Below are positions 9,427-57,070 of a stretch of DNA of 64,000 bases, piece after piece. Numbering within the stretch: the stretch's first letter is position 1; each line of letters opens with the position of its first letter. Source of the stretch: Anaeromyxobacter sp. (lineage in GTDB: Bacteria > Myxococcota > Myxococcia > Myxococcales > Anaeromyxobacteraceae). The stretch spans positions 96,001 through 160,000 of the forward strand of contig JASGJN010000017.1 of NCBI GenBank assembly GCA_049840735.1. Reading direction: 5' to 3'. The notes beneath the pieces were generated by a model, which saw only the letters and a list, made by a program, of their open reading frames with translations, did not search any database and had not been told where the DNA came from. A program made the position numbers and the translations under genes.

Positions 9427-9438
9427 CGGGCCGGATCA

Positions 9439-10866
<1,428 letters not shown>

Positions 10867-11057: not shown

Positions 11058-12398
11058 ATGACCACCGAAGCCACCGCCGTCCCCACCGCCGAAGCGCCGC
11101 TGACGCTGCTGGAGCAGCCGCCGCGGCCGCTGGGGCTGGCCGACCAGGCCGTGCTCTGGGGCAACCTGGGCATCACGCTCACCATCCCGGTGGCGGCGGC
11201 CTTCGTGCTGCAGCCGGTGGCCGGCGCCGAGCCGCTCACCCTGGCTGCGGCGGTGACGGCGGTGCTGGTGGGCGTGGGGCTGGGCACGCTGGTGCTGGCG
11301 CTCGCGGCGGTGCCGGGCGCGGAGACGGGCGCGCCGGCGATGGTGCTGCTGCGCGGCCTGGTGGGCGCCCGCGGCTCCTGGGTGCCGACGGCGCTCAATC
11401 TCGCGCAGTGCGTGGGGTGGGCCGCGGTGGAGGTCTTCGTGATCGCCCAGGGCGCCTCGCGGCTCCTGCCAGGCGTGCCTCGGCCCATCTTCGTGCTGGC
11501 GGCCGGCGCGGTGGCGACGCTGCTGGCGCTCTGGCCGCTGGGGTTCGTGCGCCGGCTGCGGCGCTACGCGGTCTGGCTGGTGCTGGCGGCCACGGCGGTG
11601 CTGTTCGTGGAGGTGCTGCGCCGGGGCGTGGTGGCGCCGCAGGGCGGTTCCTGGCGCCAGTTCTGGCTGGCGGTGGACGTGGTGGTGGCGCTCCCCATCT
11701 CCTGGGCGCCGCTGGCGGCCGACTACGCCCGCCACTCCCGCACGCCCGGGGCGGCCTTCGGCGGCGCGATGGGAGGCTTCTCGCTGGCGGCGGCGGCCTA
11801 CTTCCTGCTGGGCGTCTTCGCAATCACCGCCTCGCCGGAGGCCGGCGCCGATCCCATGGCCGCGCTGCTGGCGCTGCCGGCCGGCGCGGTGGCGCTGGCC
11901 ATCCTGGTGGTGGACGAGATCGACGAGGCCTTCGCCAACCTGTACTCGACCGCCGTCTCGGCCCAGAACTTCCGACCGTCGCTGGACCGCCGGGCGGTGG
12001 CCGTGGCGGTGGGCGTGCTCGCCACGCTGCTCGCCCTGGGCACCGAGATCGTCCAGTACGAGGGGTTCCTGTTCCTGCTGGGCTCGGTCTTCGTGCCGCT
12101 CTACGCGGTGCTGCTGGTGGACTACTTCCTGCTGCGTCGCCGCCGCTGGGACGTGGGCGACCAGGCGCCGCCGCGCCCCCTGATGATGCTCCCGTGGCTG
12201 GCGGGCTTCGTGGCCTACCAGCTCCTCAACCCCGGCAGCGTGCCCTGGTGGTCGGAGGTCTGGCAGCGCGCCCAGGGCGCGCTGCACGTCGCCCCGCCCA
12301 GCTGGCTGTCGGCGTCGATCACATCGTTCGTGGTCGCGGCGCTCGCGACGCTGCTGGTGGCGCCGCTGGAGGGGAAGCGGGCGGCGGCGCAGCGCTGA
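11058..12398 (+). CDS. NCS1-family transporter, probably hydroxymethylpyrimidine transporter CytX-like
   Basis: About 12 hydrophobic segments, ISWAPLAADYAR and ANLYS motifs; divergent from thiC. Confidence 0.8.
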   Translation: MTTEATAVPTAEAPLTLLEQPPRPLGLADQAVLWGNLGITLTIPVAAAFVLQPVAGAEPLTLAAAVTAVLVGVGLGTLVLALAAVPGAETGAPAMVLLRGLVGARGSWVPTALNLAQCVGWAAVEVFVIAQGASRLLPGVPRPIFVLAAGAVATLLALWPLGFVRRLRRYAVWLVLAATAVLFVEVLRRGVVAPQGGSWRQFWLAVDVVVALPISWAPLAADYARHSRTPGAAFGGAMGGFSLAAAAYFLLGVFAITASPEAGADPMAALLALPAGAVALAILVVDEIDEAFANLYSTAVSAQNFRPSLDRRAVAVAVGVLATLLALGTEIVQYEGFLFLLGSVFVPLYAVLLVDYFLLRRRRWDVGDQAPPRPLMMLPWLAGFVAYQLLNPGSVPWWSEVWQRAQGALHVAPPSWLSASITSFVVAALATLLVAPLEGKRAAAQR

Positions 12399-12440: not shown

Positions 12441-13661
12441 TCACCCGCCGCGCCGCAGGTCGCACCCCAAGGGCGCATTCGCTGGAGCAAGTGAAAGGGA
12501 CGGAACGAAGGCGGCCATCTTCTCGCGCCCGAAAGCCTGCACCGCTGCCCAGAGGTTGTGCCCGCGGCAGCGAAGGCGAAGGTTGAGGGCGGTGGGCGGC
12601 CCGCCCATCGCCTCAGGGTCGATGTGGTCCAGCTCCAGCTGCCAGCGGCTGCAGCAGCGGTGGCCTTCGGGCGAGATGTAGGAGCAGCAGCCGCCATCGC
12701 GCGCCCAGACAGCGCGGCGGACCCCGGCGGTCACGGTGCGAGGGTCGAAGCGGTAGGCCGTGGCAAAGACCGGGAGCGGGTCGCCGGAGGGAGCTGGAAC
12801 CGGCGCTACCTGGGGGGCCGCCGCCGGGATCGAGGCCTCGGGCGAGGGATCAGCGGGAGCCGCCGCCCTGGCCAGCTCCACCGCACCCTTTCGCTTGGCA
12901 TGCTTCTCGACCGCGCAGCGAAGCGCCTCCTTGAGGACGTCCGCCAGGTTGCCGTCGGGCACCTTGTGCGAGAGGAGCTCGCGAAGCGTCTCGAGGTCCG
13001 CGTGCGCAGCCTCGTCGAGCGTGACGCGCATCGACCACTGCTCCGCGTTGATCGGGTGAAGCTCAGGGCGGCCGGGAACGGGGGTGGGCGCAGTGAGCGC
13101 GAATGCGGGCTCCGAGAAGACGCCCGGTTCCTGAGGCTGCGCAGGGGCCACTCCGGCCGGCCCCATCGCCGGTGCAGTCGCACCCTTCGGATCCACCTGG
13201 CGGGGCTGGGGGAGCGGGGGCGAGGAAGGGAGCCGGCGCAGACCGTCCTTGGCCGCCTCGCGCGGCCTGATGGTCACGACCAGCCGCTCCACCTCGGACT
13301 TGGACTTGAAGGTCGCCTGCCCTACCAGCTCGTCCAGGTTCTCCTCGGTCATCACCTCGCGGAGCATCCCCAGGGTGGTCAGGGAGAGCCGGCCCTCCCG
13401 CAGCGGCGCCTCGAGGGAGGGGAACCGGGAGAGGAGCCGCATGGCCGCGATGCGGCGGTACGCGCCGCCTTCCGGAAGGTGCAGCACCTCACGGCAAAAC
13501 GCCCAGAGGGAGGGATAGCCCAGGTCCAGGTAGAACTTCCGCCGCTCCACCTCCGCCAGCGCAAGCAGGGACTCGACCTTGATGCCCCGCTCGTCCGCTG
13601 CGAGCGACTTCACGTGGGCGATGAGGGAGCTGTTGTCCAGCGCATCGAATCGAACGACCAT
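12441..13661 (-). CDS. HNH endonuclease domain protein (helical DUF222-like N-terminus, ribbon-helix-helix-like middle, Zn-binding HNH C-terminus)
   Basis: C-terminal RRAVWARDGGCC...RCC...LELDHIDP...GG...NLRLRCRGHN. GGAGG 8 nt before ATG at 13661. Non-HNH domain labels are by resemblance only. Confidence 0.85.
   Translation of the reverse strand: MVVRFDALDNSSLIAHVKSLAADERGIKVESLLALAEVERRKFYLDLGYPSLWAFCREVLHLPEGGAYRRIAAMRLLSRFPSLEAPLREGRLSLTTLGMLREVMTEENLDELVGQATFKSKSEVERLVVTIRPREAAKDGLRRLPSSPPLPQPRQVDPKGATAPAMGPAGVAPAQPQEPGVFSEPAFALTAPTPVPGRPELHPINAEQWSMRVTLDEAAHADLETLRELLSHKVPDGNLADVLKEALRCAVEKHAKRKGAVELARAAAPADPSPEASIPAAAPQVAPVPAPSGDPLPVFATAYRFDPRTVTAGVRRAVWARDGGCCSYISPEGHRCCSRWQLELDHIDPEAMGGPPTALNLRLRCRGHNLWAAVQAFGREKMAAFVPSLSLAPANAPLGCDLRRGG
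12471..12494 (+). repeat. HNH-associated repeat, copy inside the last codons of the HNH gene
   Basis: GGGCGCATTCGCTGGAGCAAGTGA matches 14130-14153 at 23/24 positions. Confidence 0.85.
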
Positions 13662-13901
13662 GGCGTGCACCTCCGGCAGATGCAGCCATGCTAACCGCGG
13701 ATTTCGAGGCGCTTGCCGAGGCCCCTGGCGCCTCGCCAGAGGCGAGATCTCGAGAGCCCATCTCCGCTCCCTCACGCGCCTCCGGGCGCGCCGCAGCGAT
13801 CACGCGGAGGCCTGCAGGAGAACCATTTCCTGCCACAGCGCACCGCGGGGTCCGTGCAGCGGCCAAATCGCGTCAAGCGAAGAATCGCTACGCCCCACTT
13901 G

Positions 13902-13921
13902 CGCTTGCTCCAGCGCGGGCG
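13902..13921 (-). repeat. Inverted copy (anti-repeat) of the HNH-associated repeat
   Basis: CTTGCTCCAGCG (13904-13915) is the exact reverse complement of 12480-12491. The reverse complement of 13902-13921 matches 14047-14066 at 17/20. Confidence 0.75.
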
Positions 13922-13938
13922 ACTGACTTCCGGTGCCT

Positions 13939-13988
13939 GGGCTTCGACTCCGCGAGCCCTGCGGGCTCGCTACGCTCAGCCCGAACGG
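13939..13988 (+). repeat. Palindromic REP-like element, copy A
   Basis: GGGCT-TCGACTCC-GCGAGCCC-TGC-GGGCTCGC-TACGCTC-AGCCC-GAACGG. Confidence 0.9.
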
Positions 13989-14008
13989 ACGCCTCGACCC
14001 TCCCTGCA

Positions 14009-14178
14009 ATGACCTGACCCAGTCCCCGTCCTGCTCACTCCTTGGGCGCACGCGCTGGAGTAAGTGAGCGTGAACAAGAATGACCTGCCCCCACCCTGCC
14101 CCCACCCGACTCGCATCGTCCCCCTCCTTGGGCGCATTCGCTGGAGTAAGTGAGCGTGAACACGCATGACCTGACCCC
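14009..14178 (+). repeat. Mini-array: two ~54-bp direct repeats plus a partial third, with unique spacers
   Basis: CTCCTTGGGCGCA..CGCTGGAGTAAGTGAGCGTGAACA.G.ATGACCTG.CCC at 14038 and 14124 (period 86). Partial ATGACCTGACCC at 14009. Confidence 0.85.
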
Positions 14179-14440
14179 CCCCACCACCCCCCCCACCACG
14201 CCCCCCACCACGCCCCCCACCACGCCCCCCACCGCGCTCCCCACCACGCTCCCCACCACGCTCCCCACCACGCCCCCCACCACGCCCCCCACCACGCTCC
14301 CCACCACGCTCCCCACCACGCTCCCCACCACGCACCCCACCACGCACCCCACCACGCACCCCACCGCGCTCCCCACCACGCACCCCACCACGCACCCCAC
14401 CACGCACCCCACCACGCACCCCACCACGCACCCCATCGCG
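14177..14440. repeat. 12-bp tandem repeat (VNTR), 22 copies of CCCCACCACGC(C/T/A)
   Basis: Directly visible; unit variants occur in blocks. Confidence 0.95.
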
Positions 14441-14561
14441 CTCCCCAGCCCCACCCAACTCCCCTCAGCACAGCGCCGCCCACGGCGCAGGGGCAGGGGC
14501 TCCCCTGCGCCCTGTCCCCACGGCAGGATCCCTGCGCCCCCGCCCCCCAGCACGCCCCCCC

Positions 14562-17087: not shown

Positions 17088-18063
17088 TCACCAGCCGTAG
17101 TTGGGGCTGCGGGTGAAGTGGTGGATGGAGTCGATGAAGCGCAGCGTGGCGGTGCGCGAGCGCATCACCACCGAGTGGGTCCGGCCGCCGTCGCCGGTGA
17201 AGACCACGCCGCGCAGCAGGTCGCCGCTCGTCACGCCCGTGGCCGCGAACATCACGCTGCCGCCGGCCAGCTCCTCGGCGGTGCGGATCCGGTCCGGCTC
17301 GGCCAGCCCGGAGGCGCGGGCCCGCTCCCGCTCGACCTCGCCCTTGAAGACCAGCCGGCCCTGCAGCTCACCGCCGGCGCAGCGCACGGCCGCCGCGGCG
17401 ATCACGCCCTCGGCCGCGCCGCCGGTGCCGAGCAGCATGTCCACGCCCGTCTCCGGGAAGCAGGTGGCCAGCGCGCCGGCCAGGTCGCCGTCGGTGAGCA
17501 GCTTGATGCGGGCGCCCGTCTCCCGCACCGCGGCGAGCAGCCCCTGGTGACGCGGCCGATCGAGGATCACCACCGTCAGGTCCTCGACGTACTTGCCCAG
17601 CGCGTCGGCCACGCGGCGCAGGTTCTCCACCGGCGGGCGGCGGAGGTCGATCGCGCCCTGGGCCGCCGGCCCCACGGCGAGCTTCTCCATGTAGGCGCCG
17701 GGCGGGACCCGCAGCAGGGCGCCCAGGTCGCCCATGGCCACCGCGCTCACCGCGTTGGCCGCGCCGGTGGCGCACAGGTGCGCGCCCTCCAGGGGCTTGA
17801 CCGCCACCTCGAGCTCGACGGGCTCCTCGCGCCGCCGCCCCAGCCGCTCGCCGGCCGGCAGCGCGGCCGGGTCGGCGCCGGCGGAGCCGCCCTCCCCCAC
17901 CGCGATTCTCGGCGGAGACGGCCATGTCGTTGAGCGCCCTGCGGGTGGCGTCGCGCGCGGCCTGCACCGCCGAGCTGCGATTGCCGCGCCCCATGAGCCG
18001 GGCCGAGGCCAGCGCCGCCGCCTCGGTGACCCGCACCAGCTCCAGCGCCAGGTTCCGGTCCAT
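17088..18063 (-). CDS. glpX: Class II fructose-1,6-bisphosphatase (GlpX) homologue with a degenerate active site and an apparent 1-nt insertion near 17906
   Basis: MDRNLALELVRVTEAAA N-terminus in one frame; YMEKL, LDRPRH, DGD, AEGV and FAATGVT in the next. Confidence 0.85.
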
Positions 18064-18067
18064 CGCC

Positions 18068-18488
18068 TCAGGGCTCCTGCGCGGCCTGCGCCTCGCCGTC
18101 GGAGAGCCGGGCCAGGAGCTCCCTGGGCATGCGCTGCACGCGGCCCTCCAGGTCCACGCAGGCGTGCACCGTGAAGCCGGTGGCGAGCAGCACCCCGTCC
18201 TCGCGCAGGATCCGGGTAGTCGAAGCGGGCCGAGGCGCGCCTCGCCTCCGAGAGCGCGATCTCCACCGTGAGCAGGTCGTCGTAGCGGGCGGGCTGCTTG
18301 TAGCTCACGCCCGCCTCCACCACCGGCAGGCGCAGGCCGAAGCTGGCCTCGAAGTCGCGGTAGCGCAGCCCCTTGGCACGGATGAACTCGTTGCGGGAGG
18401 CCTCGAAGAAGCGGAGGTAGTTCCCGTAGTAGACGACGCCCATCTGGTCCGTGTCCCCGTAGATGACCCGGATTTGGTGCCTGATCAT
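18068..18488 (-). CDS. Acyl-CoA thioesterase (YbgC/4HBT family), apparent 1-nt insertion near 18215
   Basis: RVIYGDTDQMGVVYYGNYLRFFE and PARYDD; continues RILREDGVLLATGFTVHACVD in the shifted frame. Confidence 0.88.
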
Positions 18489-18500
18489 GGACCGCCACCT

Positions 18501-56704: not shown

Positions 56705-57070
56705 TCCGGAGACCGCCAGGCCCCCCGAAGAGACATCGTCACACCTAGTCAACCACGAGCGCAGCGCACCCCTCTTGGACTATCGCCGGCGAGAGTGAAC
56801 CCGGGTCGCCACGAAAGGAGGGGACAGCAGCCACTTCGCCCGGCACAGCGAACTGCAGCAAATCCCGGCGCCTCCGGCCGGACGAAGCCGATGGCTTCGG
56901 TCGCCGCGAGCCGCCGCGACCACCTCCTCATCCACCTCGTTCTCCGGCGGCAGCCGCCCCAGGCCCAGCTTCAACTCGGCCAGCCAGCGCCGGCGACGCG
57001 GGCCTCCAGCCCGAGCCAGGCGGAATCCGGGAGCGTCGGCCCACCCTCCTCCGCCTTCCCGCGCCGCGAC

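Follow-up and report, generated by a model that had tools for sequence, protein, structure and literature searches.

The nearest described likeness to the locus reported here is found in the mycobacterial DUF222/REP13E12 genes, which share with it a DUF222-like N-terminus, an HNH domain and a dispersed, multicopy distribution, although the 406-aa protein of our locus falls below the Pfam cut-off. Nineteen copies of 13E12 are listed, and tied to inversion breakpoints, in PMC13157036, and 13E12/DUF222 genes are also treated in PMC10589994; the relevant passages of these papers give no operators, fold or mobility mechanism for the genes. The wider literature searched on the family, with subscription journals, the 1999 REP13E12 paper and supplements outside its scope, describes neither operators nor mobility. 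The family is already known as abundant dispersed repeats; the candidate operators, the domain map and the capture of the cassette by IS50-type ends set out below were not found in that literature.

Other systems share parts of this architecture. Ssn/NTS-SRM systems, proposed to be IS-like (PMC11893778), likewise have no transposase and consist of a single nuclease gene with its own repeat on its flanks, and our HNH gene is similarly flanked on both sides. Ssn proteins are, as described in PMC11893778, small single-domain GIY-YIG nucleases that cleave hairpins in ssDNA and whose repeats often number in the hundreds, whereas the protein here is a 406-aa HNH protein with two predicted dsDNA-binding domains whose motif stays beside its genes. 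The ISC/IscB/HEARO elements, as presented in PMC4810608 and PMC13565253, are also multicopy and non-autonomous, encode an HNH-containing nuclease and have a conserved 5' non-coding region; unlike them, our locus has no RuvC and no detected structured RNA, and the ends found in its relatives are of IS50 type with target duplications, not of IS605 type. CRISPR- and TIGR-type arrays combine constant repeats with variable spacers, whereas the repeats here differ by point changes only.

Relatives in three genomes (G032, G017 and G007) share ~18-bp inverted ends and 9-11-bp duplications with non-autonomous IS4-family (IS50/Tn5 group) elements; unlike such passengers, the copies in this genome have neither, and the passenger itself is a nuclease under purifying selection. 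ParB-parS and KorB-operator pairs resemble the locus in that a predicted helix-turn-helix fold would be matched to a 16-bp palindrome, parS being 16 bp long, and we take the palindrome here to be parS-like; unlike ParB and KorB, the protein has no N-terminal CTPase domain and no parA, and is fused to ribbon-helix-helix (RHH)-like and HNH domains. The locus offers a candidate binding site, a ParB-like/RHH/HNH map, a helix-to-base correlation and dated empty sites, so that binding, nicking and mobility are directly testable, and it points to a testable route by which a large family of bacterial repeat genes, so far unexplained, may spread.

The HNH gene, its neighbours and its predicted domains

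The window, a 64,000-nucleotide stretch of an Anaeromyxobacter contig, contains an ORF running from 13661 to 12441 on the minus strand that encodes the 406-aa protein. The block lies between a cytosine/purine permease gene and an enolase gene, both ending towards it, in agreement with the cytX-like and eno neighbours of the initial annotation, which had also correctly placed the intact HNH motif, four copies of a sequence motif, the ~54-bp direct repeats and the 12-bp VNTR. Its features are:

12441..13661, minus strand: ORF with DUF222-like helical, RHH-like and HNH domains; its last ~20 codons traverse the terminal unit
12459..12494, plus strand: left end common to all 12 copies, with the terminal unit; box A at 12476-12491
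12498..12752, minus strand: HNH domain, catalytic and zinc-ligand residues intact
12876..13079, minus strand: residues 195-262, predicted ribbon-helix-helix homodimer (dimer score 0.58)
13242..13661, minus strand: N-terminal helical domain, residues 1-140, predicted ParB/Spo0J/KorB-type helix-turn-helix DNA-binding fold
13668..13696, minus strand: ribosome-binding site (13668-13674) and predicted -10 box (~13688-13693), a putative promoter element, both read from the sequence and kept among copies
13872..13876, plus strand: GTCAA pentamer at a near-fixed distance from the start codon across the family
13904..13919, minus strand: inverted degenerate box A, where relatives have a symmetric palindrome
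13942..13988, no strand assigned: passenger REP, replaced by other REP types in some copies
14038..14177, plus strand: two ~54-bp repeats with box A at 14049-14064 and 14135-14150, each ending in an element-specific 13-mer
14179..14447, plus strand: C-rich 12-bp VNTR, 22.4 copies
14460..14526, plus strand: conserved right-end hairpin and terminus; 21 matches in the genome, 12 near HNH genes

The gene, initially described as lone, belongs to a set of 12 full-length copies (68-84% identical; over the set, 68-100% protein identity) in this genome, which also holds one internally deleted copy and two distant paralogues (41% and 29%). DNA homology among the 12 copies covers the gene and ~400 bp upstream; the left end at 12459 is common to all, the right-end hairpin occurs at 12 of 13 loci, and the shared element runs from ~12459 to ~14526, past the right-hand boundary first drawn for it. 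Matches occur in all 18 other genomes of the genus, relatives are mostly from Anaeromyxobacteraceae, and the family is a large one, its profile finding 6,880 clusters at E≤1e-30. At the level of codons, the protein is shown to be under purifying selection (dN/dS among the 12 copies of 0.12-0.29 in domains and 0.56-0.68 in linkers).

The structure model of the protein (mean pLDDT 80) has three ordered parts. Residues 1-135 align with the DNA-binding domain of ParB (Z 6.7, rmsd 8.4, 126 aligned), Spo0J (Z 6.1, rmsd 3.3, 108 aligned) and KorB (Z 5.6, rmsd 3.3, 109 aligned), and the best Foldseek match to the N-terminal domain had a probability of 0.99, but an E value of 0.14. No Foldseek match to this domain reached E≤0.001, all Z scores were under 8, both weak by the measure of the tools themselves, and the unrelated Raf1 domain scored Z 6.8; because the Z scores are middling and that of Raf1 is equally high, we treat the ParB-like fold as a prediction. 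The protein begins with the helical domain, the matches cover residues ~7-150, and a CTPase domain is absent from the N-terminus. DUF222 (PF02720) scored 14.9-17.3 bits on the protein (E 0.003) against a curated cut-off of 24.4, and was found at E≤0.01 in 29 of 99 relatives.

Residues 195-262 form a strand and two helices, and the predicted dimer pairs the strands across its axis with a score of 0.58 against 0.00 for the best control, the runs sharing at least 96% of contacts at pLDDT of at least 76. The mark for a dimer was calibrated on 30 solved pairs and 23 single chains, of which 20 and 1, respectively, reached it; since RHH dimers belong to the solved kinds, passing it shows likeness only. 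No named RHH family in Pfam matched these residues, which we take to be RHH-like. The C-terminus matches the HNH nickase of phage GVE2 (Z 7.3, rmsd 3.2, 85 aligned) and retains D345, H346, N360, C365, H368 and N369, plus C326 and C336, with conservation across the 99 relatives of 96 for H346, 93 for N369, 91 for D345 and 82 for N360. The searches turned up no RuvC, transposase or reverse transcriptase.

Several smaller features of the neighbourhood were evident. A 319-bp piece of the permease gene (window 11922-12239) recurs at 99% identity at G000:C4:76737-77055 in this genome, between an apparent reverse-transcriptase gene and a tRNA-like 3' half; this duplicate is either a capture or an assembly chimera. 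A thiC-like ORF at window 9436-10860 has an apparent frame change near its 3' end, and because ORFs near 17088-18498 show similar frame changes, single-base assembly errors are likely.

The repeated motif and a palindrome across relatives

The core CGCTGGAG[C/T]AAG is exact at 12480 (plus), 13904 (minus), 14053 (plus) and 14139 (plus), and with at most one mismatch it matched eight times in the window against 0.92 expected, a number reached by none of 100 shuffles. It constitutes the right half of a degenerate 16-bp pseudo-palindrome, box A, within a 41-bp unit; one unit overlaps the last codons of the gene and 1 to 12 units are arrayed ~380 bp upstream. Adjacent units are spaced 41 bp in 35 of 36 pairs, the exception being that of the window at 86 bp, where the two ~54-bp repeats begin at 14038 and 14124, in the region that the 41-bp array occupies in other copies. 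The units vary by point changes only, meaning that the arrays are without spacers, and as DNA the unit folds weakly (-3.8 kcal/mol). The inverted box A copy of the window scores poorly on the family matrix (-0.6 bits), and the element-specific 13-mer recurs at 14008-14020. We also considered a RAYT/Y1 mobiliser: the genome has six PF01797 matches, none flanked by the 13-mer.

Across the genome the motif keeps to its genes: 42 of 44 exact cores lie beside the 13 loci, as do 59 of 69 fuzzy matches within 1.5 kb, the remaining ten comprising six in four gene-less derivatives and four that are chance-like. It is thus not scattered independently of HNH genes. The palindromic element assigned to the block in the initial annotation is present but is part of a different system; it is a REP (~13935-13989) with 312 matches genome-wide, eight of them near HNH genes. 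This REP, the commonest of the genome, clusters densely around a 95-aa GIY-YIG gene on C21 (L188, G000:C21:262295-265510), likely an Ssn-type system. C-rich tandem repeats with differing units occupy the region equivalent to the VNTR in every one of the 12 copies, of 13 submitted, for which the repeat finder reported one, and tandem duplication of the right end is seen in several copies of this genome. At 74 of 84 family loci the GTCAA pentamer is found 150-260 bp upstream. At one copy (G000:C22:184867 region) the left flank repeats the 11 bp that precede the cassette's own GTCAA, which was not seen in the other 11 copies.

Relatives have a palindrome of 16 bp, of CTATCGCTGGCGATAG type, which lies ~240-350 bp upstream or else 10-40 bp beyond the HNH domain and often precedes a box B of TCAC-N5-GTGA type. 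A filter for the palindrome passed 13 of 106 downstream windows and, of the longer upstream windows, 25 of 85, compared with 3 of 990 controls, the loci not being independent, and a pattern drawn from the same genomes had an HNH match no more than ~300 bp away at all 15 of its sites in G017 and at 13 of 14 in G007. Read by eye, 15 of the 16 copies taken from G032 have the box. On this genome a matrix from other genomes was enriched near the genes, with 7 of 55 matches at 12 bits within 1 kb of them (0.7% of the genome), and also found perfect palindromes at the 41% paralogue and at six gene-less modules; two subfamilies in this genome differ in site variant. One of the six modules lies in the window (56780-56795), where a near-perfect family palindrome, accompanied by GTCAA and box B, stands between gene 3' ends and has no HNH gene.

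Box A appears to vary with the predicted recognition helix. In the near subfamily a site was found at 22 of 29 loci, seven being without one by the filter; half-site position 4 is A at all five loci with a proline in that helix and at none of 17 without, and the proline-helix loci are placed apart on a quick tree. The correlation is post hoc, comes from five loci in three genomes, and concerns a motif and gene inherited together. The palindrome pattern had no match in G006, G009 or G011 (the last 56% complete), which encode a distant subfamily with a different helix; since that subfamily spreads without box A, box A is dispensable for spread.

Insertion sites and IS50-type ends

Insertion sites differ between species, and comparison of flanks shows lineage-specific insertion of the cassette. 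At the loci around the cytX orthologue, 10 of 10 relatives have no HNH match, and the order in G038 is cytX-thiD-eno; thiD in this genome lies elsewhere (G000:C20:359858-360628), with no cassette remnant seen beside it. The cassette at L079 has an empty site in G002 and that at L080 in G006, the cassette replacing 30-50 bp between two stop codons in both cases, without duplication. The flanks of L145 are adjacent in seven of eight genomes and those of L164 in eight of eight; homologous loci are not syntenically fixed. Two loci had no empty site in the genomes searched: for L078 the corresponding site in G006 holds a copy that is partly deleted, and the flanks of L102 were not adjacent.

Target duplication was testable at 8 of 12 copies in this genome, where the longest shared word was 6.4 against 6.3 for mismatched flanks, and a wider search, covering the loci up to the last, revealed no consistent repeat. 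Flanking genes are convergent at 10 of 13 loci here and 36 of 57 elsewhere and divergent at 0 of 70, against a genome-wide background of ~15% each from our own gene caller, the loci being kin, partly duplicated between sets and not independent; this bias could reflect purifying selection rather than targeting.

The cassette in G032, G017 and G007 is bounded by inverted ends of ~18 bp that contain GATGTGAYGAAT and that we take to be of the IS50/Tn5 group, with duplications of 9-11 bp. Both ends were present at 27 of 54 loci examined (G032, G017, G007 and G012), with a direct duplication of at least 9 bp at 19 of these 27; the duplications in G032 are partly automatic because the flanks there are repeats, and outside the G032 microsatellite eight of eight loci have such a duplication, one of them at a unique site and the other seven within a single REP type. 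The end is found apart from the cassette as well: none of the 80 metagenome loci taken, of at least 119 matches, carries the HNH family, and at metagenome locus L287 the same end bounds the gene of an IS50-type transposase. The G032 microsatellite that houses the cassettes also contains two IS50-type elements whose ends are similar. PF14706 was found in one of seven genomes (G032), PF02281, silent in every genome and in the control alike, being uninformative. These data suggest that the family likely uses a borrowed transposase in one clade.

The picture in this genome differs: no IS50-type ends were found near its copies, neither PF14706 nor the L287 transposase (by tblastn) had a match in its 94% complete assembly, and its DDE elements with definable ends have other ends than those seen around the cassettes of the relatives. 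The end patterns also had no matches in G006 and G014.

Possible routes of spread

We favour, with a probability of about 0.58, a reading in which the block is a DUF222/13E12-like selfish nuclease cassette with cognate operators, whose HNH domain likely nicks nearby. The cassette and operator parts are highly probable; nick-and-copy as the route taken by the window copy falls somewhat short of even odds. The ParB/KorB-type helix-turn-helix of the DUF222-like domain is predicted to read the 16-bp box A, and the central RHH domain to dimerise and perhaps read the adjacent box B. Dimers bound on either side of the gene would repress its promoter, hold the ends together and position the HNH domain; nicks at the ends would trigger host repair, which would copy or restore the cassette. 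Repair of such nicks would explain the tandem duplications of the upstream end, namely the 41-bp arrays, the copy-specific VNTRs and the duplicated termini. In one clade of relatives the cassette has come to lie between IS50-type ends, and a Tn5-like transposase likely moves it in trans. Several points argue against this reading, among them that, where relatives have defined ends, their signature is that of a DDE transposase, not a nickase, and that the ParB-like fold is matched at Z scores no better than that of Raf1. Genome-wide linkage, the family-wide palindrome, the empty sites and the predicted DNA-binding domains support the earlier suggestions that the motif is a putative cis site of the protein and the block a selfish element.

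The main rival to nick-and-copy is that the cassette is a passenger moved only by transposases in trans, its boxes being autoregulatory operators and its nuclease favouring retention by cutting or nicking cassette-less alleles under protein guidance, much as IscB and TnpB serve IS200/605, with the transposon ends since eroded in this genome. We consider this unlikely. The paired ends and duplications in relatives, an end that is shared with a transposase gene and stands without the HNH family at the metagenome loci taken, and the IS50-type elements within the G032 microsatellite are all as it would predict; non-autonomous nuclease cassettes have a precedent in ISC elements (PMC4810608), and a nuclease that serves retention has one in restorative homing by TnpB (PMC13565253). 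Against it stand the copies of this genome, without such ends, duplications or either transposase match; G006 and G014, without the end patterns and with two empty sites where intergenic DNA was replaced without duplication; and the partly automatic nature of the G032 duplications. A host role, with the boxes as sites of a host regulator such as the SOS repressor and the genes as domesticated repair or recombination factors, as suggested for mycobacterial 13E12, is less plausible: PMC13157036 describes induction of 13E12 genes by DNA damage and LexA, and six palindrome modules here have no nearby HNH gene, but these modules contain other cassette motifs and those read sit at gene 3' ends, not at promoters, the motif follows the protein subfamily rather than the host, and insertion sites vary between species.

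The initial annotation had also proposed an RNA partner, and transcription of the upstream region or array into a guide RNA for the HNH domain, on the model of HEARO/IscB or array-guided systems, would fit the 400-600 nt of conserved non-coding sequence 5' of the gene; the best sequence matches among solved structures do include the HNH parts of IscB and a maturase. However, consensus folding in seven tests of upstream alignments, run beside two coding controls and reaching to -240 in this genome, gave no excess over shuffles (SCI 0.19-0.37, z -0.4 to +1.0), and the only Rfam match had an E value of 3.9. The 41-bp units contain no spacers, and the IscB model NF040563 scored 13.7 bits against a cut-off of 175, over residues 314-369 in the HNH part only; the split RuvC and bridge helix around the HNH domain are absent, the confidently modelled parts being three other domains. 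We therefore regard an RNA-guided nuclease as very improbable.

Returning to the selfish cassette with cognate operators, a broader version is that DUF222-HNH genes as a whole form a large class of protein-guided, transposase-free mobile elements, which we put forward as a doubtful extension. A ParB-type domain with a readable recognition code would bind operators at both cassette ends, the HNH domain would nick, host repair would copy the cassette into intergenic DNA at gene 3' ends, and some lineages would later hitch-hike on IS50 ends. If the protein does copy its own cassette, its mobility would need neither a transposase nor a guide RNA, and compact site-specific nickases would have a natural source here.

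A head-to-tail junction at L206 (G032:C1:1646015-1646064) connects a right end to the left end of an HNH cassette, with a short stretch of microsatellite between the two; it is either a tandem insertion or a junction relic. In metagenome contigs, L274 and L302 are gene-less elements of ~170-260 bp bounded by the same IS50-type ends.
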